Origin: Acutalibacteraceae bacterium
GTDB lineage: Bacteria > Bacillota > Clostridia > Oscillospirales > Acutalibacteraceae
Direction: 5' to 3'
NCBI GenBank assembly: GCA_045586465.1
Contig: JAZNAI010000253.1
Coordinates: 1 to 39,866 of the forward strand
Length of the DNA stretch: 39,866 nucleotides
Below the pieces are notes generated by a model. It was not told the origin of the DNA, searched no databases, and saw only the letters and a program-made list of their open reading frames with translations. Of this stretch, positions 26,648 through 39,332 are shown one piece after another. Made by a program: the position numbers and the translations under genes. Numbering within the stretch: the first letter of the stretch is position 1; every line of letters starts with the position of its first letter.

Positions 26648-26653
26648 TAAAAA

Positions 26654-26673
26654 CGCTCCCGACCCCGGGAGCG
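26654..26673. terminator. Bidirectional intrinsic terminator (AraC gene / DUF1622 gene)
   Basis: GC-rich 7-bp stem cgctccc (26654-26660) / gggagcg (26667-26673), with T-runs on both strands. Confidence 0.55.
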
Positions 26674-26680
26674 CTTAATT

Positions 26681-27052
26681 TTATTTTTCTGATTTGTTTT
26701 GTGAGGCATTTTCCTTTTCCTCAAGGCGTATTTCCCAATGGATAATAACAGCCAGCAGAGCACGTATTACTATTACAACACCGAGAATTGCAAGCTCTTC
26801 AAGATCGTGGATTATAACGGTTTTTATAATCTCGGCACCCATCTTAAATTCAAGCGCAAGTGCCAATGCCTTACCAAGCTCAACAACTACATTCAGGGGC
26901 TGTTTTTTTATAAGACATCCTATTACTCGGAACAAAGCACGGAAAGAGCCTATAAAAATAATGACAATACCGATAAGCTCAAGTGTGCTTGCCGTAATTT
27001 CAGCAACAGGAAAAAGAAATTCCCTGAATAATACTGCAAAATTTTCAAGCAT
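26681..27052 (-). CDS. DUF1622-family small membrane protein
   Basis: Three or four TM helices. 'LELIGIVIIFIGSFRALFRV' and 'LGKALALALEFKMGAEIIKT' fit the DUF1622 pattern. It starts 14 nt after the apbE stop. Confidence 0.55.
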   Translation of the reverse strand: MLENFAVLFREFLFPVAEITASTLELIGIVIIFIGSFRALFRVIGCLIKKQPLNVVVELGKALALALEFKMGAEIIKTVIIHDLEELAILGVVIVIRALLAVIIHWEIRLEEKENASQNKSEK

Positions 27053-27066
27053 TTTGTGTACCTTCC

Positions 27067-28104
27067 TTATTTTTCATAGTTTTTCCAGCCTTCGGAATAT
27101 GTTTTTGTTCCGTCTTCACTTACCCACATAGCCTCTGCATCAGGCATCTCCTTAATAAGCTTCAAGCCTTCTTCAAGCGGCAGACAGAAAAGCGTTGTAG
27201 AAAGCACGTCGGCAAGTCCCGACTCCGTACATACAACAGAAACCGATAAAAAGCCCTCAGAAGGCATAAGCGTCTCGGGATGGATTATGTGATGATAGGG
27301 CTTTCCGTCAACGTAATAAAAACGCTGATATGAGCCGCTTGTAACGAGAGACTGACCGGAAAGTCCGAGATATGAAAGATAGTCTCCGCCGTCGGGATTT
27401 TCTATTCCCACAGTCCAGGGAGAGCCGTCTCCTTTTGTACCGATGCTGCGGACATTTCCGCCCACGTTCAGCACATACCCCGTAATGCCTCGTTCCTCAA
27501 GGTCTTTTGCTATACACTCAACAGCATAACCTTTTGCAACAGCCCCTACGTCAAGCTTCATTCCGGGGTCTGTCAGAGTAACAGTATTGTTTTCTTCATC
27601 AACAACCATTTTTTCAATATCGCAGTGAAGAGCTGCCTCTTTAAGCTTTTCCATAGGAGGAAGTGATGCTTCTGAAGGGTTATCCTTGCCTATTGTACGG
27701 TAATCATGCCACAAGGACAGAACGCTTCCCATTGCAACGTTCATAACACCGTCTGTCTTATAATACATTTCTTTTGCAAAAAGAAGCATATCAATAATGC
27801 GTCTGTCAACCGTTACGGTGCGATGCTCACCGTCTGTAAGCTCGTTTATGGTGCAAAGATTCTCCATTCCCTCAAATCTGTGATAAATGGAATAAAGGCG
27901 GTGATATTCACCCAAGTCAGACATAATTCCTTCTGCAACCTTATCAAAATCTTCCTGTGATTTTTCATACCCCGTTATTGTCGTAAGGGTATCAAAATAA
28001 TCCATTGTATAGGTTGAAAATTTTTCTTTATTCTCCGTGCAGGCACACAAGCTGCATACCAAAACACAAAGAATCACAGCAATACTTAAAATTCGTTTAA
28101 TCAT
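27067..28104 (-). CDS. apbE: FAD:protein FMN transferase (ApbE/Ftp family) lipoprotein
   Basis: Lipobox 'SLCAC'. ApbE signatures 'MDYFDT', 'DVGAVAKGYAV', 'NVGGNV', 'VTSGSYQR', 'HIIHPETL'. The start is either ATG 28104 or TTG 28110, with no clear SD. Confidence 0.85.
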   Translation of the reverse strand: MIKRILSIAVILCVLVCSLCACTENKEKFSTYTMDYFDTLTTITGYEKSQEDFDKVAEGIMSDLGEYHRLYSIYHRFEGMENLCTINELTDGEHRTVTVDRRIIDMLLFAKEMYYKTDGVMNVAMGSVLSLWHDYRTIGKDNPSEASLPPMEKLKEAALHCDIEKMVVDEENNTVTLTDPGMKLDVGAVAKGYAVECIAKDLEERGITGYVLNVGGNVRSIGTKGDGSPWTVGIENPDGGDYLSYLGLSGQSLVTSGSYQRFYYVDGKPYHHIIHPETLMPSEGFLSVSVVCTESGLADVLSTTLFCLPLEEGLKLIKEMPDAEAMWVSEDGTKTYSEGWKNYEK

Positions 28105-28120
28105 AGTCAATAAAACAAAA

Positions 28121-28142
28121 AGAGAGAGAAAATTCTCTCTCT
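28121..28142 (-). terminator. Intrinsic terminator between the lipoprotein gene and apbE
   Basis: Minus strand reads AGAGAGAGAA-TTTT-CTCTCTCT followed by TTTTTGTTTT. Confidence 0.6.
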
Positions 28143-28164
28143 TCTTTTAATCTGTTGAATTTAC

Positions 28165-29172
28165 TCAGATCTTGGAAGCAGCCTTAACAAAGCCGGAAAC
28201 AATGATTGTGCAGCCTGCAGTCTGAAGGTCTGCTACACCCTTACCGTCTTCAGCAACGAGAGTAGCAATTTCAGAAGCTGTCTTGCCAACGCAAGCAGCG
28301 TCAAAAGCAGCAGCCTGCTCGTTCCATTCCTTTGTTGCACCGCCGTAAGCTACCATACCGTAGTCAGCACCCTGAGTCTTCTTGGAAACAACTTCCTTAG
28401 TTGTGTCAAGAGTAGAAGCGCCGGCTGTTGTGAATGTGAAGGAAACCTCTACACAGTCGGAAGCACAAGCAACAACCTTGCCTTCAGCGTTAACAGCAGC
28501 AGCATAAACATATGTTGCAACCTTGTTTGAGCCATCCTTATCCTCTGTAGCATCTGTGCAGGTCTGCTCTGTAGCAGCTGTAACCTTAAGAGTATCCGCA
28601 GCTGTAACAGCAGATTCAGCAGCAGCATTGTAAGCCTTTTCGATAGCAGCGACGAATTCGTTGATCATAATTGTGCAGCCTGCAGCTACAACTTCATCAT
28701 TACCCTTGTTCTCTTCAGCAACAAGAGCCTTAACCTCGTCAAGAGTCTTGCCTGCAACGAGTGTTTCGAAAGCGTCAGCCTGCTCGAACCATTCCTTTGT
28801 TGCACCGCCGTAAGCTACCATGTTGTAGTCGTTACCAAGCTCGTACTTTGTCTTGAACTCTTCCTTAGCAACAGCCTTACCGTCAGCGGTAAAGTTTACT
28901 GTGTTGCTTGATGTGTCAAGAGCACATGAAACGATCTTGCCTTCTGCGTCAACAGTAACGGCAGCAACGGTTACATCAACCTTACCGGAACCGTCCTTAT
29001 CTTCTGTAGCATCTGTTACAGAAGGAGCAGTAACATATAAGCCTGAACCGAACTTAAGGGTTGTTTCTGTGGGAGCAGTTGTTTCTTCTGTGTTTGTTGT
29101 GTCACCGCAGCCTACGAACATTACGGAAACAGCCATAATGAGACATAATGCAATAACTAAAGCCTTTTTCAT
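28165..29172 (-). CDS. Lipoprotein with two tandem FMN_bind-like repeats (non-canonical AGCT motif)
   Basis: Signal peptide plus 'FVGC' lipobox. Two repeats of about 155 aa each contain 'DATEDKDGS.KV', 'V.AEGK(I/V)V.CA.D', 'MVAYGGATKEW.EQA.AF', 'GKT..E(V/I)..LVAE' and 'AGCTI'. GGAGG RBS. Confidence 0.6.
   Translation of the reverse strand: MKKALVIALCLIMAVSVMFVGCGDTTNTEETTAPTETTLKFGSGLYVTAPSVTDATEDKDGSGKVDVTVAAVTVDAEGKIVSCALDTSSNTVNFTADGKAVAKEEFKTKYELGNDYNMVAYGGATKEWFEQADAFETLVAGKTLDEVKALVAEENKGNDEVVAAGCTIMINEFVAAIEKAYNAAAESAVTAADTLKVTAATEQTCTDATEDKDGSNKVATYVYAAAVNAEGKVVACASDCVEVSFTFTTAGASTLDTTKEVVSKKTQGADYGMVAYGGATKEWNEQAAAFDAACVGKTASEIATLVAEDGKGVADLQTAGCTIIVSGFVKAASKI
28205..28821 (-). repeat. 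Internal gene duplication with a 465-nt period, preserved at nucleotide level over the motif-coding segments
   Basis: attgtgcagcctgcag occurs at 28205-28220 and 28670-28685. The 33-mer ccattcctttgttgcaccgccgtaagctaccat occurs at 28324-28356 and 28789-28821. Both pairs are exactly 465 nt (155 codons) apart. Confidence 0.85.
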
Positions 29173-29207
29173 TTGTAAATTCCTCCGTTTATTTTTTAAC
29201 CGTGCAG

Positions 29208-29236
29208 ATATTACTATATATTAATAAAATTGTCAA
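29208..29236 (-). promoter_or_regulatory. Strong candidate promoter of the lipoprotein gene
   Basis: Minus strand reads consensus TTGACA (29236-29231), 17-nt spacer, TAATAT (29213-29208), about 35 nt upstream of the ATG at 29172. Confidence 0.55.
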
Positions 29237-29291
29237 GCATTATTAAAAAAATTCATAATTTATTCTAAAATAGTTGCAAATTACAGAATAT

Positions 29292-29795
29292 TCATATTAA
29301 TTTGTCCGGAATACGCTTAATAAGCAAGGCTCCGCAAAGCCCTATAAATACACCTGCAACAGTTCCCGTAACAGCGAGAACCGCAAGATAATAACCAAGC
29401 TCTGATGTTTCCAGAAGAAGTGCAGCCATTATAATCTGTCCGATGTTATGAGCAACTCCGCCTGCCACACTTACTCCCACAGGAGAAAGGAAATTGAGCT
29501 TTCGGAGAATTATCATCACAAGAAGACTCAGCACACCGCCCGCAAGACTGTACATAAGTGCCATCATATTGCCGAAAAGCATACTCACAAGCAGAATTCT
29601 TACAAGAGAAACAATTCCCGCAAATACCGGACCTTTTCTGTAAAGGAGAAACACAATTATAATATTGGGAAGCCCCATTTTAATTCCCGGAAGTGATGTA
29701 AATAAAGGAGGAATCAGAACTTCTATGTAAGCGAATATCAATGCGAGTGCAACACATATACCGCCGAAGGCAACGGTTTTTGATTTCTTTTTCAC
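29292..29795 (-). CDS. Gx transporter family membrane protein (PF07456; historically mis-named heptaprenyl diphosphate synthase component I)
   Basis: 'VAFGGICVALALIFAYIEVLIP...PGIKMGLPNIIIVFLLY' and about 5 TM helices. GTG start with GGAGG 6 nt upstream. Confidence 0.65.
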   Translation of the reverse strand: MKKKSKTVAFGGICVALALIFAYIEVLIPPLFTSLPGIKMGLPNIIIVFLLYRKGPVFAGIVSLVRILLVSMLFGNMMALMYSLAGGVLSLLVMIILRKLNFLSPVGVSVAGGVAHNIGQIIMAALLLETSELGYYLAVLAVTGTVAGVFIGLCGALLIKRIPDKLI

Positions 29796-29805
29796 GCAAG
29801 ACCTC

Positions 29806-30207
29806 CTATATAATCACATCCGGGCCGTCCGTGCCGGCATCCCGGGTAACGGTAATTACAACACGGTTCGGAAGACATACGATGCTTTCACCGTCACGGA
29901 AAATACTCTTATGAGATACACATATTCCGTCGGGACAGGTAGCAGTTTCCATAAATGCCTTACCGTCCTTAATTACGAAACGGTTGTGATTCTCATTGTT
30001 GTCCCCGGAATAAATATCTTCGCATATATCCCGGGAAAGCGAATAAACTCCGTACACTTCCCCGTCAACCGTTACCGTAACAGAGTCCCCCGGACTGCGG
30101 AAAAAATTAAGATAAATAAGACCGATAACCGCCGCAAGAATTACGGCGGTAATCAGAATAATATCGTTCCTTAAGTTGTGATTTTTTTTATTTTCCCTGC
30201 TATTCAT
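29806..30207 (-). CDS. NusG domain II-containing membrane-anchored protein
   Basis: TM anchor, then 'VTVTVDGEVYGVYSL...RFVIKDGKAFMETATCPDGICVSHKSI...GESIVCLPNRVVITV' (NusG_II pattern with CPD.ICV...CLPN). The start is set at ATG 30207, 1 nt after the rnfB TGA. The longer track ORF overlaps rnfB. Confidence 0.7.
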   Translation of the reverse strand: MNSRENKKNHNLRNDIILITAVILAAVIGLIYLNFFRSPGDSVTVTVDGEVYGVYSLSRDICEDIYSGDNNENHNRFVIKDGKAFMETATCPDGICVSHKSIFRDGESIVCLPNRVVITVTRDAGTDGPDVII

Positions 30208-30208
30208 A

Positions 30209-31042
30209 TCAACTGAGCAGATCCTCACTGCTGACATCAGCAGGAATATCGGGGAAGAATGCCGTTTTGAGACAGCCCGTGGGACATTCCTTGACACAGG
30301 CTTCACAGTGAACACACTTTTCATAATCAATAACTGCACAGTTATCAATTACCTTTACAGCACCGTGAGGACAAGCCTTTTCGCACTTTTTACAGCCGAT
30401 ACAGGCATTTTTGCAAGCCTTCTTGGCATCAGCACCCTTCTGCTTGTTGCTGCACATTACAACAGTAGCAGTTTCCTGAGGAATCATATTGATAATTCCC
30501 TTGGGACAGGTTCTTGTGCAAAGACCGCAGCCGAGACAGCGTGCAGTATTAATATGAGCAATACCGTCCTTAATGCATATAGCCTTTGCAGGACAAGCAG
30601 CCGCACAATCGCCAAAACCGAGACAACCGAAACGGCAGGAATTATTACCGCCGTAAATCATTGCTGCGGCATAGCAGGAGCTTACACCCTCGTACTCTGC
30701 AATCTTGGAGGTTGCATCGCAGTTACCGTTGCAGGAAACAAATGCAACAACGTCCTTGAAGGGCTCAGCTTCAACACCGAGAATACCGCCGATTTCATCA
30801 GCAACACTCTGAGCGCCGGGAATACAGAGATTGGGAGCAACACCGCCCTCTGCAAGAGCAGCGGCATAGTCATCACAGCCCTTATATCCGCAGGCACCGC
30901 AGTTGATACCGGGAAGACAGGCACGGATTTCACCCTTAAGAGGATTCTCGGGTACAGAGAAGAAATGAGAAAATACGGTAATAAGAATACCTGCAACGAG
31001 GGCAACGCCTAACATTACGAGAAATGCAATTAAAATATCCAT
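30209..31042 (-). CDS. rnfB: Rnf electron-transport complex subunit B (polyferredoxin)
   Basis: N-terminal TM, then 'CLPGINCGACGYKGCDDYAAAL' and four CxxCxxCxxxCP ferredoxin motifs. Confidence 0.85.
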   Translation of the reverse strand: MDILIAFLVMLGVALVAGILITVFSHFFSVPENPLKGEIRACLPGINCGACGYKGCDDYAAALAEGGVAPNLCIPGAQSVADEIGGILGVEAEPFKDVVAFVSCNGNCDATSKIAEYEGVSSCYAAAMIYGGNNSCRFGCLGFGDCAAACPAKAICIKDGIAHINTARCLGCGLCTRTCPKGIINMIPQETATVVMCSNKQKGADAKKACKNACIGCKKCEKACPHGAVKVIDNCAVIDYEKCVHCEACVKECPTGCLKTAFFPDIPADVSSEDLLS

Positions 31043-31057
31043 CGTCCGTCCCCCTTA

Positions 31058-31657
31058 TCAAGCAAATATATTTTCAACAATACCGCTGAATCCCATAAAT
31101 GCAAGGGATATAAAGGAAGCAGCAATGAGAGTAACGGCAAGACCGCGGAAGGGTGCAGGTACCTTTGTATCGTCAATTCTTGAACGTATTCCGGAGAAAA
31201 GCACCATTGCAAGCAGGAAGCCGAGTCCGCAGCCCAGAGAGCTTACCATTGATTCAATAAAGCTGTAGCCGTCAATTATATTATTGATTGTAACACCGAG
31301 CACTGCACAGTTTGTTGTGATAAGAGGAAGGTAAACACCGAGTCCCTTATAAAGTGAAGGAGAGAACTTTTTAAGAACAAGCTCGAGAATCTGAACGAGA
31401 GTTGCAATTATAAGAATAAACGCAATATTCTGAAGATAACCGAGACCCAGAGTATCAAGAACGAATTTCTGAATGGGCCAGGTTGCAGCAGTTGCAAGAA
31501 GCATAACAACCGTTACGGCAACACCCATTCCTACTGCCTGATCGATTTTCTTGGAAACACCGAGGAAGGGACAGATACCTAAGAATCTGCTGAGAACATA
31601 GTTATCAACAAGCACGGATGAAAGAAGTATAATAATTAAAATCTTGAAGCTTTCCAT
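31058..31657 (-). CDS. rnfA: Rnf complex subunit A
   Basis: 'VLVDNYVLSRFLGICPFLGVSKK' and 'LPLITTNCAVLG' are canonical RnfA/NqrE motifs. Confidence 0.9.
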   Translation of the reverse strand: MESFKILIIILLSSVLVDNYVLSRFLGICPFLGVSKKIDQAVGMGVAVTVVMLLATAATWPIQKFVLDTLGLGYLQNIAFILIIATLVQILELVLKKFSPSLYKGLGVYLPLITTNCAVLGVTINNIIDGYSFIESMVSSLGCGLGFLLAMVLFSGIRSRIDDTKVPAPFRGLAVTLIAASFISLAFMGFSGIVENIFA

Positions 31658-32346
31658 CAGTTCTCATCTCCTTTCTCAGAGCAATTTCCGCCCTGACAAT
31701 TTGCCGCATTGGGACAGCCCTCACAAGAAAATGACTTTTTAAGAGGAGCTCTTCCGTGAGTAACGGCATAAATAAATGCAATAAGAAGTCCGTATACAAG
31801 AAGTCCGCCGGGTGCCTTTGTGAAAAATTCGATTTTGTAATTCTGAAGGAAGGGAATTTCAATTCCGAAGAATGAGCCTGCACCGAATACCTCACGGATT
31901 GTTGACATCATAGTAAGTGCAAGGGTAAAGCCGAGTCCCATACCGATACCGTCAAGAGCGGATGCAACAACACGGTTCTTGTTAGCAAACATTTCGGCAC
32001 GTCCGAGAATTATACAGTTAACGGTGATAAGGTCAAGATAAACACCGAGAGTCTCGTATAATTCGGGAAGATATGCCTGAACAAGCATTTTTACAATTGT
32101 AACGAAGCCTGCGATAATAACGATATAACAGGGAATTCGCATTGATTCGGGGATTTTCTTACGAAGAAGAGATATGAATACGTTTGAACAGATGAGAACA
32201 GCCATAGCTGCAAGTCCCATACCGACAGCACCCTTGACGCTGGTTGTTGTTGCAAGTGTGGGACAGGTGCCGAGAATGAGCACCAATACGGGATTTTCCT
32301 TCAGTATGCCGTTAAGCAGTACTGACATAGAGGATTTTTCTTTCAT
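31657..32346 (-). CDS. rnfE: Rnf complex subunit E, with a Cys-rich C-terminal tail
   Basis: 'LKENPVLVLILGTCPTLATTTS' and 'LITVNCIILGRAE' are RnfE/NqrD motifs. Extra tail 'SCEGCPNAANCQGGNCSEKGDEN'. Confidence 0.9.
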   Translation of the reverse strand: MKEKSSMSVLLNGILKENPVLVLILGTCPTLATTTSVKGAVGMGLAAMAVLICSNVFISLLRKKIPESMRIPCYIVIIAGFVTIVKMLVQAYLPELYETLGVYLDLITVNCIILGRAEMFANKNRVVASALDGIGMGLGFTLALTMMSTIREVFGAGSFFGIEIPFLQNYKIEFFTKAPGGLLVYGLLIAFIYAVTHGRAPLKKSFSCEGCPNAANCQGGNCSEKGDEN

Positions 32347-33524
32347 TATCGGGCACCTCCGTTCATAGTAGTGATTGCATTGAATGCACGCTCAATAGCC
32401 TGAGTGTAACCGTTTGTTGTTAAGGTTGCACCGCTTATAGCATCAATTTCCTTGTAGTTTTCGTCTGTTTTTCCTACAAACTGACTGTAGAAGCTTTCGT
32501 CTGCACAGGCGTCACCCAGTCCGTCGGTTTCAGCTTCGGAAACAGTAAGACAGTCAATAATTCTGAAATCGGGTGTTACGGAAACACGTACAATAATATA
32601 TTCGCCCGAAGCGGGATGGTATTCATCGCCGCCCTTAATACCGTAGCCTGCACCCTTTGTTTCAAGCACGAAGTTTCCGGAAGCGGTCTTCTTAGCAGAA
32701 ACTACAGTCTTTTCAAGACCTTCATAAGCAGAAATGTCAATATCCTCGAGTGTGCTTGCCTTGATTGCAGCAACAGCATCGCTATAAAGAGCCGTATCGG
32801 CAACGCCGTCGGTAACTACCGTACCGTCAGCATTCACACCGATGAACTGTTCACCGGAAACAAAAACATAGCCTGCCTTGTTTGTTGCTTCGTAAACTGC
32901 GTCAACACCTTCAATGAGTTCTACCATAAAGAGCTTTTCGAATGCCTTTTCACCTGCAGGGAATGCAGCATCCAGGTTATCTGCAAGAATTTCTTCCTCT
33001 GTACGGATATCAACAGAACCGCCGCCGAGGATAATTGCTGCATTAAGAGCATCCTTTACCGCATTCTTGTATGCCTCGGTAGTCTTTGTAGCACCCGAAA
33101 TAGTATCAACTGCTTCAACACCTGCGGCATCCTTATCGGTAAAGTTTTCACCGTAAGTTTTTTCTTTACTAAGGGTTTCATTAGAAGAAAGACATACGGC
33201 ACCTGTTACAACACCGTCTGAGCTTACGCCGCACATAATAACGAAATCTGAGCCGTAGCCTGCGGTAGTGAGCTTTACAACGTAACCGAGCCCCGATGTT
33301 TCTTTGTGTACTTCAGTTACTGTTGCAGGCAATGAAAAAGTGCTGATATCAGCTGTTTCAAAGCCCTTGCCCTCGGGCATTACCTCTAAAAGTGCAGCAT
33401 TGGCAGCCGCATTCTGATTTTCGGCAATAACGGGAGCAGTAATAAAGTTTGTAGCTGCAAGAAGTACGGTGATAACCGAGCAGATGCAGACAAAAACAGC
33501 AAGATTCTTAATGTAAGTTTTCAT
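32346..33524 (-). CDS. rnfG: Rnf complex subunit G with two FMN-binding domains (392 aa)
   Basis: N-terminal anchor. Two FMN_bind units end in 'VDTISGATKTTEAYKNAV' (T146) and 'IDAISGATLTTNGYTQAI' (T367). Confidence 0.8.
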   Translation of the reverse strand: MKTYIKNLAVFVCICSVITVLLAATNFITAPVIAENQNAAANAALLEVMPEGKGFETADISTFSLPATVTEVHKETSGLGYVVKLTTAGYGSDFVIMCGVSSDGVVTGAVCLSSNETLSKEKTYGENFTDKDAAGVEAVDTISGATKTTEAYKNAVKDALNAAIILGGGSVDIRTEEEILADNLDAAFPAGEKAFEKLFMVELIEGVDAVYEATNKAGYVFVSGEQFIGVNADGTVVTDGVADTALYSDAVAAIKASTLEDIDISAYEGLEKTVVSAKKTASGNFVLETKGAGYGIKGGDEYHPASGEYIIVRVSVTPDFRIIDCLTVSEAETDGLGDACADESFYSQFVGKTDENYKEIDAISGATLTTNGYTQAIERAFNAITTMNGGAR

Positions 33525-34441
33525 TCTTTATCTCCTCCTGCCGTAAATACCTTACGCTTTGTCCACTTGCAGATGTAAGGATTAAGTATGTTCATAAACA
33601 GAATTGCAAAGGAAACACCTTCGGGATAAGTTCCGAAATATCTGATAAGGCAGGTAAGAAGACCTGCGCCGAGGCCGAAGATAACCTTGCCCCAGGGGGT
33701 GTAGGGAGATGTTGTGTAATCTGTTGCCATAAAGATAGCACCGATAAATACACCGCCCGACATAAGAAGGGAAAGAGCACTTACGGCATCAAAGCCTTCC
33801 ATAAACAATGAGAAGAGGAATACCGTTCCGAGGAAAACGACGGGAATCTGCCAGGAAATAACACGTCTTACGAGAAGATAAACTCCGCCGATAAGTAAAG
33901 CTGCAACGCAGGTTTCACCTATAGCACCGCCGTGTCTGCCAAGGAACAAATCAAGAAGCCCGGGCATTTCTTCTGCTGAAAGAGGAGTAGCAGAAGAAAC
34001 GGAATCTACGGGGAATGAAGGCACAGCCATTGAGCCGAAGGCAACAAGCATAAACACACGTGCCGTAATTGCAGGGTTTACGAGGTTTGCACCGATTCCG
34101 CCGAAGAGGCATTTTACAACTATTATTGCAAAAAGTGAACCGACAGCGCACTGCCAGAGCGGAACGTCAACAGGAAGATTAAGAGCAAGAAGAAGACCCG
34201 TAACTGCAGCGGATAAATCCCCTACCGTCTGCTCCTTCTTTACAATAAGATTAAAAATTGCTTCAAATCCGACAGAGCAAGCAATACACACTGCAATTAC
34301 AAGAAGTGCACGCCAGCCGAATATTACCGTACCTGCAATAGTTGCGGGAAGTAATGCAATCAGAACGTCGCCCATAATACCGGAAGTGGATTTTCCGCTG
34401 TGAATATGGGGAGAAATCATTAATTTTGTAAGAGCACTCAT
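33521..34441 (-). CDS. rnfD: Rnf complex subunit D
   Basis: 'SPHIHS', polytopic, with a flavinylation-site region 'DSVSSATPLS' (T152). Confidence 0.9.
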   Translation of the reverse strand: MSALTKLMISPHIHSGKSTSGIMGDVLIALLPATIAGTVIFGWRALLVIAVCIACSVGFEAIFNLIVKKEQTVGDLSAAVTGLLLALNLPVDVPLWQCAVGSLFAIIVVKCLFGGIGANLVNPAITARVFMLVAFGSMAVPSFPVDSVSSATPLSAEEMPGLLDLFLGRHGGAIGETCVAALLIGGVYLLVRRVISWQIPVVFLGTVFLFSLFMEGFDAVSALSLLMSGGVFIGAIFMATDYTTSPYTPWGKVIFGLGAGLLTCLIRYFGTYPEGVSFAILFMNILNPYICKWTKRKVFTAGGDKE

Positions 34442-35757
34442 TATTTGCTTCCCTCCTTTGCTGCGTTATCCGCTAATAATTTTTTAGAGAGCTTGTTAAT
34501 CTGCACAAGAGGACGGTTTGCAGGACATACAAAGCTGCAGCAGCCGCATTCCATACAGGACTGAACGGAAAGAGCCTTTAATTCGTCCGTGTCCTCCTTT
34601 GAATAAGCCTCTGCTATATTTACGGGTGCAAGGCTGAAGGGACATGTGTTTACACAGGCACCGCAACGGATACAGGCTGTGGTTTTGGGAAGCTTTGCTT
34701 CCTTTTCTGAAAGAGCAAGAACTGCATTTGTGTTCTTAAGCACGGGAACATCGGCATTGGGAACGGTAATACCCATCATAGGACCGCCGTAAATGATTTT
34801 TGCAGGATCCTCTTTAAGACCGCCGCAGAAATCAAACAGTACATTAACGGGAGTACCTATGGGAGCTATCACGTTCTGAGGCTTCGTAACAGCTGCACCG
34901 TCCACAGTTACAAGCTTTTCCGTAAGAGGCATACCCGTTTTAAGGAAAGAACCTATCTGTGCAACAGTTGTGCTGTTAAGAACAATACATCCTACATCAA
35001 TAGGCAGCTTGTTTGCGGCAATCTTTCTGCCCGTGGTATGGTAAACCATAACCTTTTCTCCGCCCTGAGGGTACTTATCGGGAAGAACGCTTACCTTTAC
35101 TTCAAGCTCAGTAAGTGATGAAGCAAGAGACTGCATTGCAGAAACTACCTTTTTGTTGCCCTTTTCAACACCGATAATAACCTTTTTTACACCGAGGTAC
35201 TTATTGATAGCCTTAAGAGCCGCTGCCATATCATCGGCACGTGTCAGCATATTTACTGAGTCACTTGTAACGTAAGGCTCACATTCAGCACCGTTTACTA
35301 TAAGATATTCTATTTTTTCCGTGGGAACATCAAGTTTTACGTGTGTGGGGAAGCCTGCACCGCCAAGGCCCACTATACCGCTTTTCTTAACGGCCTCAAT
35401 AAAGCTGTCTCTGTCGCTGATAACGGGAGGAGCCACAGCTTCATCAACGGCATTTTCGCCGTCTGCCTCAATTATGACAGCAGTCGTGGTTTTGCCTGTG
35501 GCAAGAAGATAGTCCGTAAGCTTTGTAACCTTACCTGATATGCTCGCATAGATATCAGATGAAACTTTACCGTCAGCTTCACCTATTTTTGTTCCGATTT
35601 TAACCATATCTCCAACCTTTACAACAGGAGTTGCAGGCTTACCGATATGCATTGACATCGGAATTATTACAGTCTTCACGTCAGAAAGACGCTCAACGGG
35701 ACTGTCTTTGGTACCTTTTCTGTGGGGCGTGTGTATTCCGAGAAGATAAGAACCCAT
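34441..35757 (-). CDS. rnfC: Rnf complex subunit C (NADH/FMN/Fe-S binding)
   Basis: 'GIVGLGGAGFPTHVK', 'IVNGAECEPY', two 4Fe-4S motifs 'CIRCGACVNTCP' and 'CMECGCCSFVCP'. The start is either ATG 35757 (GAAAGG upstream) or ATG 35778. Confidence 0.85.
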   Translation of the reverse strand: MGSYLLGIHTPHRKGTKDSPVERLSDVKTVIIPMSMHIGKPATPVVKVGDMVKIGTKIGEADGKVSSDIYASISGKVTKLTDYLLATGKTTTAVIIEADGENAVDEAVAPPVISDRDSFIEAVKKSGIVGLGGAGFPTHVKLDVPTEKIEYLIVNGAECEPYVTSDSVNMLTRADDMAAALKAINKYLGVKKVIIGVEKGNKKVVSAMQSLASSLTELEVKVSVLPDKYPQGGEKVMVYHTTGRKIAANKLPIDVGCIVLNSTTVAQIGSFLKTGMPLTEKLVTVDGAAVTKPQNVIAPIGTPVNVLFDFCGGLKEDPAKIIYGGPMMGITVPNADVPVLKNTNAVLALSEKEAKLPKTTACIRCGACVNTCPFSLAPVNIAEAYSKEDTDELKALSVQSCMECGCCSFVCPANRPLVQINKLSKKLLADNAAKEGSK

Positions 35758-35946
35758 AAAAAATAAACCTTTCTTCATAATTTGTTATTATAGTATGCAT
35801 CCGCATAGATATACATATTAATAATAAGTCAAGAAAAAGGCAAAGTCAAGGAATAAGTTTGTTACTATTTTATCAATATCAGAAGCATATACAACAGACC
35901 CAAAATAATACATAAATCGTCGTACACAGAAAAAACCGATGAAGTA

Positions 35947-37020
35947 TTATTCACCGGTTTTTTCTCTTATATTTATTACGATATCTGCTCGTTTTTTTAT
36001 TTCCGTTTTTTCAAAATAGATATTTTCAAGAGGAATCCATTCTGAAAAGAAACGCTTTGCCAATGCAGGAGAATTTCTTTTTTCTATGCGTTTTTTCTGA
36101 AAATCAGGGGAAATATCAAGAAAAGCGGATAAATTATAGTACTTGCCGAAATCGGGATGCATCGAATAAACACCCTCAACAACCGTCAGTTTTTTCGGCG
36201 GGACACTTACCGTATCGCCGAGAGTCTGTAAAGAACAGTCAAAGGGTCTGTAATTTACTGTTTCATTTTTAACCAAGGAGCAAATAATTTCATCATAAAA
36301 ACGCTCTCTGTCAAAATTTCCGCCGATTTCACAAAAACGCTCGGGGGTACGCTGTTCAGGACGTAAAAAGAAATCGTCCGCATGGAAAATACTGCAGTCA
36401 TACACCGACGCCAAAACTTCCGAAAGCGTGGATTTTCCGCTTGCACTCCCACCCTCAATTGCAAGAATTGCATTCCCCTTCGGAAGTAATTTATCAATTT
36501 CAGCAAAAAGACGAATAAAATCAGAATACTTATTGTCAATTACCCTGTATGAAGGCTTATATGTGCTTCTGAAAACCTCGGAATGATGAATTGCAGGACA
36601 GCCTCTCCCCTGCCACTCAGCAAGCTCCTTTTCAAATTCCGCCTTATCAAGAGAAATTTCCCCGTTCAGTATAAGCTCACGGGCAATCTCAATTTTCTGC
36701 GAAAGCAAGGCTTTTCCGTCAGGCTCTTTCTTTGCTGAAAGACAGAATAATTTTGTCAGCGTTTCGGGGGAAAGTCCTGCATTTATCCACGAAAGGTAAA
36801 CCCGGCTGTAATTTCCGTCAAGGGCATCCGTAAAAGGCTCGGCAGCTTCTGACATTTCAGCAAATTCGTTCTTTATATACTGCAAAGCCGTGCCTTCATC
36901 CGTTACAAGATGCTCACAGCCGAATACACTCTGAAACAGAAATTTAAGAAGATCTTCCGCCTGCAGATTCGGGAAGTTTTTATAATGCTTCAACAGAAGC
37001 TCACGTGTGTTTTTATTCAT
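35947..37020 (-). CDS. Two-domain protein: unknown N-terminal domain (about 170 aa) + uridine-kinase/PRK-family P-loop kinase domain
   Basis: Walker A 'AIEGGSASGKSTL', 'FHADDFF', 'VVEGVY' in the C-terminal half. I do not recognise the N-terminal half ('LLKFLFQSVFGCEHLV...'). It starts 1 nt after the S-component stop. Confidence 0.5.
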   Translation of the reverse strand: MNKNTRELLLKHYKNFPNLQAEDLLKFLFQSVFGCEHLVTDEGTALQYIKNEFAEMSEAAEPFTDALDGNYSRVYLSWINAGLSPETLTKLFCLSAKKEPDGKALLSQKIEIARELILNGEISLDKAEFEKELAEWQGRGCPAIHHSEVFRSTYKPSYRVIDNKYSDFIRLFAEIDKLLPKGNAILAIEGGSASGKSTLSEVLASVYDCSIFHADDFFLRPEQRTPERFCEIGGNFDRERFYDEIICSLVKNETVNYRPFDCSLQTLGDTVSVPPKKLTVVEGVYSMHPDFGKYYNLSAFLDISPDFQKKRIEKRNSPALAKRFFSEWIPLENIYFEKTEIKKRADIVINIREKTGE

Positions 37021-37021
37021 T

Positions 37022-37561
37022 TCAGCCTCTCAGTTTAAGAATTTTGGGATTATCAAGAATCATTACTGCAACGGGAATAAGCACGAGCTGTACGATAATC
37101 CCCGGAACGGCTTCCGTAAGGGCACCGGCAAGGAAAGCCGAAAAAGTGAAAGCTCCGCCGTTTATGCTTAAAGCCGTAAACATAGCAGCACCCCACACAA
37201 GTCTTCCTGCAATCATAGCAACAAGAAGCGAAAGATAGATGTAAGGCTTCTTTCGGGGAAGAAATTTATGCATAAGTCCCGATACCGCACCGTAAGCGGC
37301 AAGCTCAAATGCCATACAGACCGCCACAGGAAAAAGCGGAGGCATACCGAGTGTCAGAGAACGGAAAAGCGGAGCTGTAAAGCCGACAGCCATCCCCCAA
37401 TGCCATCCGCACAGGAATCCGCAGAGAAGCACGGGAATGTGCATAGGGCAAAGCATTGAGCCGATTTCGGGAATCTGCCCCGTAAGAAAGGGCATCACAT
37501 AGGAAAGGGCAAGAAAGAATGCAGAGAGCACCATTTTAATAAGCCTTGAGTTGTTTTTCAT
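37022..37561 (-). CDS. ECF-transporter S-component-like membrane protein (PF12822-like), substrate unknown
   Basis: About 6 TM helices. 'LSAFFLALSYVMPFLTGQIP...CPMHIPVLLCGFLCGWHWGMAVGF..PL' is typical of S components. AAAGGAG RBS. Confidence 0.6.
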   Translation of the reverse strand: MKNNSRLIKMVLSAFFLALSYVMPFLTGQIPEIGSMLCPMHIPVLLCGFLCGWHWGMAVGFTAPLFRSLTLGMPPLFPVAVCMAFELAAYGAVSGLMHKFLPRKKPYIYLSLLVAMIAGRLVWGAAMFTALSINGGAFTFSAFLAGALTEAVPGIIVQLVLIPVAVMILDNPKILKLRG

Positions 37562-37742: not shown

Positions 37743-39332
37743 TTATTCAGCATTTTCATAAAGACCGACACCTGAAAAATAATTGGCGCCTTTATTGACA
37801 GAAAAAACCGTTGACTTTTCACCGCTTACCTGATTTTCAGGGCCTCTGAAGCCGGGACCGGAAAAGTCATCCGGTCGCTGAGGTCTGTCACCGTTTTGAG
37901 GCATTGATGAAGGTTCTTCTCCCTCAGGCATTTCAGGAGGTATCATACCTTCAGGCATCTGCGGAAAGCTCTCTCCCTCGGGCATCTGCGGGAAGCTCTC
38001 ACCCTCGGGCATTTCGGGTCTTGCATCCGGAGAAAATCCGCCTGCCATTCCGTTCTCTGCACTTACAGCTAACTGCTCACTGCCCTGCCATAAGGTATAT
38101 TCACCGGGAATAAGCTTCTCCCCTGCAATTATCAGATAAGTAAATGCATTTGAGGGGGTGTATTCACTTACGGTTTCACCCTCTGAACTTTTAATTGAAT
38201 AGCTGACACCGCCGTTCTGACGGGAATTAAAGCTGAACACGGCAAAGGTACCGTCTCCCCCTGATATACGGTCAAGCATATTACCCGTAGCAATAACATT
38301 GCCGCCGTTTATATAAATGCCCATATCAGAATCAATGCCTGCATCTCCGCTTACGGAGCAAGCCTGTGCCGTCACGGTACCGCCGTTGATAACAAGCCAG
38401 CCGTTTGAATCAATTCCGTCGCCCTCACCCGTTGAGCCGTCACAGATAATGCTGAGAGCTCCTCCGTTTATTGTTGTTACGGAAACATTATCTTCATTGG
38501 TATTGATTCCGTCATTACCGGAAATTATGTTGATATTTCCGCCGTTGATTGTAAGATGAAGCTCGCTGTCAAGACCTTCATTTTCAGCGTTGATATTAAG
38601 AATACCGTCACCGATATCTCCACCCGTAATATTCATTGTTTTCCTGGAATAAAATGCCGCATCATACTTATGAAGCTTTTTGCTGTCAATAACCTCAGTT
38701 CCGTCCTCATTAAGTTCAACGGATTTATAGATTTTTGCAACATAGGCACCGTTAATATTATTCACGGTTCCGTCGGCAATTATGACATTTGCACCTGCAT
38801 TTTCGGTATTTACGTCCTTCGTTGCATTTTCTTCGCCGGTGTCTGAGCATTCGTAAACATTATAAAAAATAACGGCAGGGGCAACGGTGCAGGTTATATC
38901 AACACCGCCCAGAATAAGCGTTACAACTGCATCGGGATTTTTCTCGGCGTCCTCACCCAAATCTACTGCAATTTGTCCCGAAGACAGCTTTCCGCTGAGA
39001 AAGTATTTTCCGGGTGCGGTAATATGGACAACAGTATGAGCATCTGCCTCAGCCTTACTGTGAGCATCACCTTCGCTGCCTTCACCGTAAGTAAAGTCTT
39101 TGCCTTCCTCATAATACACTATATCATTTGCTGCATAAACCGCCTGCTGTGTATCAGCAGTCACATTTTTTCCGTCAACTAAGATTACATCATCGCTTAA
39201 TGAAATGCTGACAGCATCGGAAAACTCCTGTGCTTCCGTTGTTTCATCCGAAGTTTTTGTCGGAACAGAAGTGCAGGATACAAGCATAACAGCTATAAAA
39301 ATAAAGACAAACGCAGATTTCAGAATTTTCAT
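37743..39332 (-). CDS. Lipoprotein of the Cthe_2159-type carbohydrate-binding beta-helix family (PF14262-like)
   Basis: Lipobox 'LVSC'. 'ISLSDDVILVDGKNVT...VVHITAPGKYFLSGKLSSGQIAVDLG...VVTLILGGVDITCTVAPAVIF' matches the family N-terminal pattern, followed by repetitive G/N/D-rich beta-helix rungs. The C-terminal region is Pro/Glu-rich. Confidence 0.55.
   Translation of the reverse strand: MKILKSAFVFIFIAVMLVSCTSVPTKTSDETTEAQEFSDAVSISLSDDVILVDGKNVTADTQQAVYAANDIVYYEEGKDFTYGEGSEGDAHSKAEADAHTVVHITAPGKYFLSGKLSSGQIAVDLGEDAEKNPDAVVTLILGGVDITCTVAPAVIFYNVYECSDTGEENATKDVNTENAGANVIIADGTVNNINGAYVAKIYKSVELNEDGTEVIDSKKLHKYDAAFYSRKTMNITGGDIGDGILNINAENEGLDSELHLTINGGNINIISGNDGINTNEDNVSVTTINGGALSIICDGSTGEGDGIDSNGWLVINGGTVTAQACSVSGDAGIDSDMGIYINGGNVIATGNMLDRISGGDGTFAVFSFNSRQNGGVSYSIKSSEGETVSEYTPSNAFTYLIIAGEKLIPGEYTLWQGSEQLAVSAENGMAGGFSPDARPEMPEGESFPQMPEGESFPQMPEGMIPPEMPEGEEPSSMPQNGDRPQRPDDFSGPGFRGPENQVSGEKSTVFSVNKGANYFSGVGLYENAE
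37921..38015 (-). repeat. In-frame 27-nt tandem repeat (about 4 copies) encoding MPEG(ESFPQ)
   Basis: The reverse complement of ATGCC(T/C)GA(G/A)GG recurs at 37921, 37948, 37975 and 38002 (27-nt period). The peptide is MPEGESFPQ-MPEGESFPQ-MPEGMIPPE-MPEGEEPSS. Confidence 0.8.

Follow-up and report, generated by a model that had tools for sequence, protein, structure and literature searches.

What do the five genes that follow an rnf operon contribute to it? The question is raised by a 39,866-nt stretch of DNA from an Acutalibacteraceae bacterium (assembly GCA_045586465.1, contig JAZNAI010000253.1), hereafter called the window. Positions 26681-35778 of its minus strand hold 11 genes: rnfCDGEAB, a gene for a NusG domain II (NusG_II) protein, a gene for a PF07456 ("Gx") protein, a lipoprotein gene, apbE, and a DUF1622 gene (Table 1). 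A preliminary description of this DNA, made from the sequence, had listed the same genes, and its positions and family assignments held for all 11 when compared with Pfam and NCBIfam profile matches. We think it likely that the genes form a cluster for the biogenesis and function of Rnf in an Acutalibacteraceae-like gut Clostridium, with the NusG_II and Gx proteins, here called EetA and EetB, supplying flavin adenine dinucleotide (FAD), with ApbE, and with the lipoprotein as a client. The association of Rnf with EetA/EetB and ApbE is a published one. The new element is the lipoprotein family, which is unnamed and is almost always encoded directly upstream of apbE. This family, its non-canonical motif, its dedicated expression signals and the coupling of DUF1622 to apbE are new variants within a known module.

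A lipoprotein family encoded upstream of apbE

The lipoprotein matched no Pfam or NCBIfam family, nor did any of 75 diverse relatives, and a look-up of its exact sequence gave no record. Its two repeats are 50% identical to each other. The family to which it belongs has 3,537 matches among 90% identity clusters, with 1,366 representatives at 50% identity; the majority of members are lipoproteins of about 330 aa with two domains, the number rising to four to six in some, and the named members that were looked up were all entered as 'hypothetical protein'. Among the taxa represented are Clostridia, Erysipelotrichaceae and a Sphaerochaetaceae metagenome-assembled genome (MAG).

Genomes, one per species, were scanned with an alignment of 16 lipoprotein sequences. 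At least 588 genomes contained a relative; the best 80 loci were kept, and the proteins of the window were mapped onto them (denominators below 80 are as stated with each count). These loci belong to MAGs of Acutalibacteraceae, Oscillospiraceae, Lachnospiraceae and Ruminococcus, recovered for the most part from the guts of ruminants and other animals, and the closest species representative was an Acutalibacteraceae MAG whose lipoprotein is 86% identical to ours. The gene after the lipoprotein gene was apbE in 76 of 79 loci, and the gene before it was eetB in 66 of 74. All six rnf genes were present in 64 of the 68 loci with enough flank, the remaining four being cut on the rnf side. DUF1622 was found in 56/80 loci, 49 times straight after apbE and seven times divergent upstream of rnfC. 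The arrangement is thus conserved far beyond chance. The close spacing of some genes is a general feature of these loci as well. In the window, the spacings downstream of the rnf genes are 1 nt (rnfB/eetA), 10 nt (eetA/eetB), 119 nt (eetB/lipoprotein), 54 nt (lipoprotein/apbE open reading frame (ORF)) and 14 nt (apbE/DUF1622); the median spacings across loci were 1 nt for rnfB-eetA (74 loci), 11 nt for eetA-eetB and 13 nt for apbE-DUF1622.

The two genes that follow the lipoprotein gene were readily assigned. ApbE scored 227 bits against PF02424 (cut-off 25.6) and has an N-terminal hydrophobic segment followed by a Cys, as predicted for an extracytoplasmic lipoprotein. The DUF1622 protein scored 58 bits against PF07784 (cut-off 24), with hydrophobic segments at residues 12-49 and 78-110; it also occurs on a 63-kb Logan contig (SRR26714007) and in assembly GCA_045630245.1. 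A homologue search with the DUF1622 protein returned only close relatives and was thus uninformative about other gene contexts, and a search of the literature on DUF1622 found nothing.

Relation of the lipoprotein to FMN_bind

By sequence, the lipoprotein could be connected to a known family solely by way of the Protein Data Bank (PDB) entry 2KZX. A phmmer search matched the two at 1.9e-5, with the AAGCTI of the lipoprotein aligned on the ISGATI of 2KZX; the aligned 2KZX fragment itself scores 2e-5 with PF04205, above the FMN_bind cut-off, and 2KZX is counted in PF04205 in the literature. When a lipoprotein domain was compared by hhalign with the RnfG domain profile of the same loci, the same threonines were aligned (E 3.7e-4, 41 columns), although the match is a weak one, with a probability of 36%. 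By these sequence comparisons, the lipoprotein and the FMN_bind domain appear to be remotely related, AGCT or SGCT standing in place of SGAT.

Over 328 domains of the family, the four-residue motif is [A/S/T]-[G/S]-[C/V]-T. Its final position is T in 300 domains and S in 19, that is, in 319 of the 320 non-gap domains, and the residues before it vary; an invariant hydroxyl preceded by variable residues is the pattern expected of a modified residue. Outside the motif, D86, K109, Y116, M118, E127, W128, Q131 and G141 are at least 95% conserved. AlphaFold models had pLDDT scores (predicted local distance difference test) of 94.6 for the full lipoprotein and 95.5 for a single domain, and are predicted to have three long strands and then helices, the threonine being placed four residues ahead of the final helix.

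In previous work, G-to-A and A-to-V changes in the flavinylation motif allowed ~50% flavinylation, and a D-to-A change had a minor effect (PMC12052999). Given this reported tolerance of ApbE for G-to-A, A-to-V and loss of the Asp, the AGCT site is a plausible ApbE substrate.

Expression signals around the lipoprotein gene

A TTGACA-like hexamer (an exact TTGACA in 68 cases), a 17-18 nt spacer and a TAnnnT box were found upstream of the lipoprotein orthologue in 71/75 loci, and the sequence around these boxes is not conserved across loci. In each of the 45 loci that were inspected, an A-tract, a G-C-rich stem and a T-tract lie after the lipoprotein stop and before apbE, with stem sequences that differ by lineage. 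In the window, the T tract of the hairpin abuts the start of apbE, which lacks a Shine-Dalgarno sequence. The preliminary description had a separate strong promoter driving the lipoprotein gene, followed by apbE and DUF1622. The promoter, TTGACA-17-TAATAT, is there, but the lipoprotein gene is not simply co-transcribed with apbE, because a terminator-type hairpin follows it. The start proposed for apbE probably needs moving as well: the ORF extends to TTG 28110, but ATG 28104 is the more likely start, giving the 345 aa found in the annotation of the source contig. We infer from the strong promoter and a presumably leaky terminator that the lipoprotein would be highly expressed, and that apbE and DUF1622 would be expressed at a low level that depends on read-through. 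Such a pattern fits a stoichiometric client, the lipoprotein, and a catalytic enzyme, ApbE.

One variant of the spacer deserves mention. At L027:11003-11267 an insert of ~200 nt, which folds as a near-perfect long hairpin, separates the two arms of the conserved terminator hairpin, the whole spacer having a minimum free energy of -109 kcal/mol. The insert looks like a small palindromic mobile element in the terminator loop.

Covalent or non-covalent flavin binding

Several results weigh against flavinylation of the lipoprotein, in addition to the weakness of the profile match with RnfG. PF04205 had no match at E values up to 1 in the lipoprotein or in 75 diverse members of the family. The canonical D-x-x-[S/T]-G-A-[S/T] is absent from the lipoprotein, which has VVAAGCT and LQTAGCT instead, with no Asp in register. 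Foldseek searches of the PDB with the full model and with one domain gave nothing below E 1e-3 and no FMN_bind structure in the top 50; the top matches were weak ones to IscU (E 5e-3, template modelling (TM) score about 0.4). At the level of the fold, therefore, these searches did not place the lipoprotein in FMN_bind. The IscU matches raised the question of an iron-sulfur scaffold, a reading that was rejected given the TM score and an E value above 1e-3; moreover, there is only one conserved Cys per domain, and roughly one domain in four has V, A, T or I in its place.

The alternative that survives best is that the lipoprotein is not covalently flavinylated, and instead binds flavin non-covalently and hands it off, for example by capturing FAD released by EetB for use by ApbE, or by scavenging flavin mononucleotide (FMN) or riboflavin; its ligand might also be an unrelated one. 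The high expression implied by the promoter and terminator would suit a binding protein, and the replacement of SGAT by AGCT, the missing Asp, and the failure to match FMN_bind in Pfam or in structure searches all speak for this alternative. We nevertheless consider it possible but doubtful, given the hydroxyl residue at the position of the flavinylated Thr in all but one of the 320 domains while the preceding residues vary, the tolerance of ApbE for the G-to-A and A-to-V changes, and the placement of the family immediately upstream of apbE, like other ApbE substrates.

In the preliminary description, the lipoprotein was put forward as an additional, electron-carrying client. Remote FMN_bind homology, the invariant hydroxyl residue and the obligate adjacency to apbE support this indirectly, and the lipoprotein is probably an extra flavin-carrying client; as to covalent flavinylation itself, we lean slightly towards it. 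The lipoprotein motif would escape standard [S/T]GA[S/T] searches. If the lipoprotein is flavinylated, then the range of sequences recognised by ApbE widens, surveys based on the motif or on Pfam undercount the extracytoplasmic flavoproteins of gut and rumen Clostridia, and Rnf in these organisms gains a candidate extracytoplasmic electron partner.

EetA and EetB

The NusG_II and Gx proteins had been described as having no experimentally defined role, and as being either accessory Rnf subunits or the route that supplies FAD to the extracytoplasmic ApbE. The statement that they are undescribed has been overtaken by published work. PF07456 corresponds to EetB, encoded in the Listeria locus for extracellular electron transfer (Rivera-Lugo 2023, mBio, PMC9973259), and a data table of that paper labels PF07009 proteins EetA and contains an Acutalibacteraceae cluster with the order apbE-eetA-eetB-rnfC. 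In Listeria, deletion of eetB leads to loss of PplA flavinylation and of extracellular electron transfer, and exogenous FAD restores activity in part; recombinant EetB binds FAD and models as the substrate-binding (S) subunit of an energy-coupling factor (ECF) transporter (PMC9973259). In the authors' model, EetB acts as an FAD exporter in concert with FmnA, an ECF-T protein, and EcfA/A'. Among the 31,910 genomes that they surveyed, eetB lay beside eetA in 3,328 genomes, beside apbE in 2,169, and beside Rnf genes in 572 Clostridia genomes; eetAB was also found beside apbE in clusters without Rnf (PMC9973259). A 2019 paper had already remarked on 'heptaprenyl diphosphate synthase' genes beside rnf clusters.

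The proteins of the window agree well with these assignments. EetA scored 95 bits against PF07009 (cut-off 29.6), has one hydrophobic segment, at residues 11-39, and is encoded directly upstream of eetB. Its soluble domain matches the structural-genomics entry PDB 4ESN (8e-20), with which it shares three conserved cysteines, CPDxxC...CLPN, a pattern that suggests a metal site or a disulfide. EetB scored 124 bits against PF07456 (cut-off 30), is 167 aa long with multiple hydrophobic segments, and falls within the operational definition of EetB given in PMC9973259; a search of the PDB found no solved relative. As had been described, the ATG of eetA lies 1 nt past the rnfB TGA and eetB begins with a GTG 10 nt past the eetA stop. 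A GGAGG spans that stop, and apbE is two genes downstream of eetB. We conclude that the NusG_II/Gx pair is very probably EetA/EetB, serving FAD supply, in agreement with the published model for Listeria EetB, and that the proteins are better annotated as EetA and EetB than as "NusG domain II protein" and "heptaprenyl diphosphate synthase component I".

Two observations weigh against a role in FAD supply. Deletion of eetA in Listeria gave no phenotype (PMC9973259), and a scan of the window proteins found no ECF-T or ECF-A gene in the 40-kb window, so that the export machinery is locally incomplete. Most of the surveyed eetB genes likewise have no local ECF-T or ECF-A gene (PMC9973259).

On another reading, EetA and EetB would not export flavin but would belong physically to the Rnf complex as accessory subunits, or would form the membrane electron conduit that was first proposed for the Listeria locus. 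Translational chaining to rnfB with a conserved 1-nt gap would be understandable on such a scheme, as would the conserved cysteines CPDxxC...C in the outward-facing domain of EetA. We consider it quite improbable in view of the Listeria results, in which loss of eetB is loss of flavinylation, partly rescued by FAD, and EetB binds FAD and fits an ECF-S model, and in view of the eetAB genes that lie beside apbE in clusters without Rnf (PMC9973259). Further, native Rnf of Clostridium tetanomorphum purifies as six subunits, about 250 kDa, which leaves the accessory subunits of the preliminary description without support, and four loci have eetA and the lipoprotein gene with no eetB in between.

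In those four loci (L045, L055, L058 and L074) eetA is kept after rnfB, with no room or match for eetB before the lipoprotein gene. Their eetB may be encoded elsewhere in the genome, or may be dispensable.

Rearranged loci and remote relatives

In 4/80 loci, and in one separately found relative, the lipoprotein-apbE-DUF1622 block precedes rnfC rather than following eetB. The blocks are rearranged and are still together, which argues for selection on co-location. Identities across the loci go down to 41-58%. In five remote relatives, 35-40% identical, with two to six domains and with ASVT, ASCS or SSVT motifs, the gene immediately downstream is apbE in every case, and where the contig is longer, eetB or rnf genes are close by as well. 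It is therefore very improbable that the co-location is gene order inherited in one clade, with the lipoprotein and DUF1622 functionally unlinked to Rnf and ApbE, even though all of the 80 best loci are from related gut Clostridia MAGs: the order is rearranged with the blocks kept together, the identities are low, and the remote relatives, one of them in a spirochaete, are still followed by apbE, with rnf and eetAB in the vicinity.

Two of the remote relatives have unusual gene complements. The spirochaete locus, from the Sphaerochaetaceae MAG (L087:8001-18410), has a six-domain member of 983 aa with ASCS motifs, followed by apbE, rnfC, rnfD, a gene for a 649-aa RnfG, rnfE, rnfA, eetA and eetB; no rnfB was detected in this locus. 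Because this MAG has a member, the family is not confined to Firmicutes. The other locus (L088:7063-14260) has eetA-eetB, a gene for a four-domain lipoprotein, apbE, rnfC, rnfD and an rnfG for a single-domain protein of 177 aa, followed by a gene for an unannotated protein of 143 aa. No rnfE, rnfA or rnfB was detected in the L088 locus, which may represent a reduced, three-subunit Rnf-like system.

The Rnf operon

NCBIfam and Pfam matches placed all six Rnf subunit families (C, D, G, E, A and B) in one operon. The preliminary description had these genes joined throughout by overlaps of 1-4 nt. This is so for C/D (1 nt), D/G (4 nt), G/E (1 nt) and E/A (1 nt), but not for rnfA/rnfB, which are separated by a 15-nt gap. 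The candidate flavinylation threonines were located where they had been placed, in S(G/S)AT motifs: T152 of RnfD, in SSAT, and T146 and T367 of RnfG, both in SGAT. RnfG is of double length, and its halves are homologous to each other (hhalign 1e-20). G-A-T is retained at both RnfG sites in nearly all of ~70 orthologues, the first motif residue being S, G or A. A strict tie between a double-length RnfG and the lipoprotein was considered and rejected, given the 177-aa RnfG that accompanies a four-domain lipoprotein in L088 and the 649-aa RnfG in L087.

The start of rnfC may need correction. No Shine-Dalgarno sequence precedes ATG 35778, and ~10 nt upstream of this codon is a TATAAT box. AAGAAAGG comes before an alternative in-frame ATG, at 35757. 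Alignments with the family models begin only at residue 14, and for this reason the true start may be the downstream ATG, 35757.

A proposed pathway

By strong homology, rnfCDGEAB would encode a membrane ferredoxin:NAD+ (oxidized nicotinamide adenine dinucleotide) oxidoreductase whose RnfD and RnfG subunits need phosphoester-bound FMN on threonines at the outer face of the membrane. ApbE, itself a predicted lipoprotein, would form the FMN bond with FAD as the donor, again by strong homology. Homology and the published Listeria genetics suggest that FAD made in the cytoplasm would be exported by EetB, a predicted FAD-binding, ECF-S-like protein that appears to be translationally chained to rnfB through eetA, and that presumably works with housekeeping EcfT/EcfA/EcfA' encoded elsewhere. 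EetA, with a predicted single membrane pass and an outward-facing NusG_II domain, would be the obligate genetic partner of EetB. The DUF1622 protein would be a small membrane protein coupled to apbE.

The lipoprotein would consist of tandem divergent FMN_bind-like domains, to which ApbE is predicted to attach FMN, at T167 and T322. Gene context provides the link between the lipoprotein and ApbE; its flavinylation and its role as an electron carrier are what we infer. That role would most likely be that of a surface-tethered flavin carrier exchanging electrons with the outward-facing flavins of Rnf, and the additional FMN domain that double-length RnfG carries would be a possible point of contact. 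That the lipoprotein carries electrons for Rnf is a tentative suggestion. A more specific scheme, which we regard as unlikely, is that Rnf in these gut Clostridia and in at least one spirochaete has a quinone-independent outlet, with electrons that reach the outward-facing flavins passing by way of the extra FMN domain of RnfG to the abundant lipoprotein, with its two covalent FMNs at [A/S]GCT sites, and on to external acceptors, with reverse flow possible. If such an outlet existed, there would be a new class of ApbE substrates, and Gram-positive anaerobes would have a new path, based on Rnf, for extracellular electron transfer.

Comparison with known systems

The Clostridia Rnf-eetB clusters of Rivera-Lugo et al. 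(PMC9973259, Fig. 4C) resemble the present locus in having eetA-eetB beside rnf and apbE, with FAD export proposed to serve the flavinylation of RnfG and RnfD. The unannotated two-domain lipoprotein, a DUF1622 gene after apbE, and a double-length RnfG are present here but were not found in the consulted portions of the text and supplement of that paper.

The reference composition of the Listeria monocytogenes locus is FmnB/ApbE, EetA, EetB, FmnA, PplA, Ndh2 and DmkA/B. Shared with it are an ApbE-type lipoprotein, EetA/EetB, and a lipoprotein at the surface that has two repeats of a flavin domain, which here are FMN_bind-like and predicted. In contrast to Listeria, a scan of the window genes found no ndh2, no dmk and no dedicated ECF-T (FmnA) gene, and the membrane redox partner here would be Rnf. 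Unlike PplA, the lipoprotein matches neither NF041941 nor PF04205, and it has AGCT rather than [S/T]GA[S/T].

FMN_bind (PF04205) includes NqrC, RnfG and PplA, and 2KZX, which is from Clostridium thermocellum. To the probable link through 2KZX and the weak profile match can be added a conserved Thr that shortly precedes the C-terminal helix, a modelled order of three strands and then helices, a predicted extracytoplasmic location and an adjacent apbE. The lipoprotein differs from FMN_bind in having helices inserted, in the model, between the sheet and the motif, in its non-canonical motif, and in the absence of a Pfam match and of a significant Foldseek match.

DUF2271 and DUF3570 (Meheust 2021, eLife, PMC8238504) offer a parallel, as unannotated domains tied to apbE by gene neighbourhood and with a conserved hydroxyl motif. 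Theirs, however, is the canonical [S/T]GA[S/T], with flavinylation shown by experiment, whereas the [A/S/T]-[G/S]-[C/V]-T of the lipoprotein is known from sequence. The same authors proposed that RnfG proteins with multiple FMN_bind domains open a second electron path to extracytoplasmic acceptors (PMC8238504). Compared with those multi-flavinylated RnfG proteins, the one here has two domains and no cytochrome domain, and the cluster encodes a separate candidate acceptor, the lipoprotein.

Features of the locus and the remainder of the window

The genes and the signals found by inspection and consensus scan are given in Table 1.

Table 1. Genes and predicted expression signals of the rnf-eetAB-lipoprotein-apbE locus (window coordinates)
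Feature	Coordinates	Strand	Description
promoter-like TTGACT-17-TATTAT upstream of rnfC	35821..35849	-	consensus scan; after the hairpin and T tract ending the upstream gene
rnfC	34441..35778	-	445 aa; TIGR01945 4e-135; PF01512, PF13375
rnfD	33521..34441	-	306 aa; PF03116 2e-108; predicted flavinylation site SSAT T152
rnfG	32346..33524	-	392 aa; N-terminal membrane anchor and two FMN_bind (PF04205), SGAT T146/T367
rnfE	31657..32346	-	229 aa; TIGR01948, PF02508
rnfA	31058..31657	-	199 aa; TIGR01943 3e-77; PF02508
rnfB	30209..31042	-	277 aa, polyferredoxin type; NF005503 1e-65; PF04060 and several Fer4
eetA	29806..30207	-	133 aa; PF07009 (NusG_II) 3e-27; single-pass, extracytoplasmic NusG_II domain
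eetB	29292..29795	-	167 aa; PF07456 6e-36; polytopic; predicted FAD-binding ECF-S-like export component
lipoprotein promoter TTGACA-17-TAATAT	29208..29236	-	consensus scan
lipoprotein	28165..29172	-	335 aa; signal peptide, lipobox FVGC Cys22; two FMN_bind-like repeats, AGCT motifs T167/T322
predicted leaky attenuator	28108..28146	-	terminator-type hairpin (28146-28117) and T tract in the lipoprotein/apbE spacer
apbE	27067..28104	-	345 aa from ATG 28104; PF02424 3e-67; predicted FAD:protein FMN transferase, lipoprotein
DUF1622 gene	26681..27052	-	123 aa small membrane protein; PF07784 7e-16
strong terminator ending the unit	26651..26676	-	11-bp stem, 7 G-C pairs, T run; common to the convergent AraC-type gene

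Upstream of the rnf promoter, at 35947-37561 on the minus strand, are a gene for an ECF-transporter S component (PF12822, 179 aa) and then one for a 357-aa protein whose C-terminal half resembles P-loop nucleoside/uridine kinases and whose N-terminal half has no match. This pair was considered as part of the flavin module and rejected: a hairpin and T tract lie before rnfC, the pair is kept only in the three closest loci, and it has no FMN riboswitch. A search for Rfam families, the FMN riboswitch among them, found none in the window.

The rest of the window (1-25703 and 37743-39332) holds mostly genes for carbohydrate use. These include three MFS_2 sugar transporters and GH36 and GH38-like glycosidases, as well as a DUF4838 protein, a WbsX-type glycosyltransferase, a SIS-domain protein with a BadF-type ATPase, and a Cthe_2159-family carbohydrate-binding protein. 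As judged from these assignments, the gene content fits a fibre-degrading gut organism.

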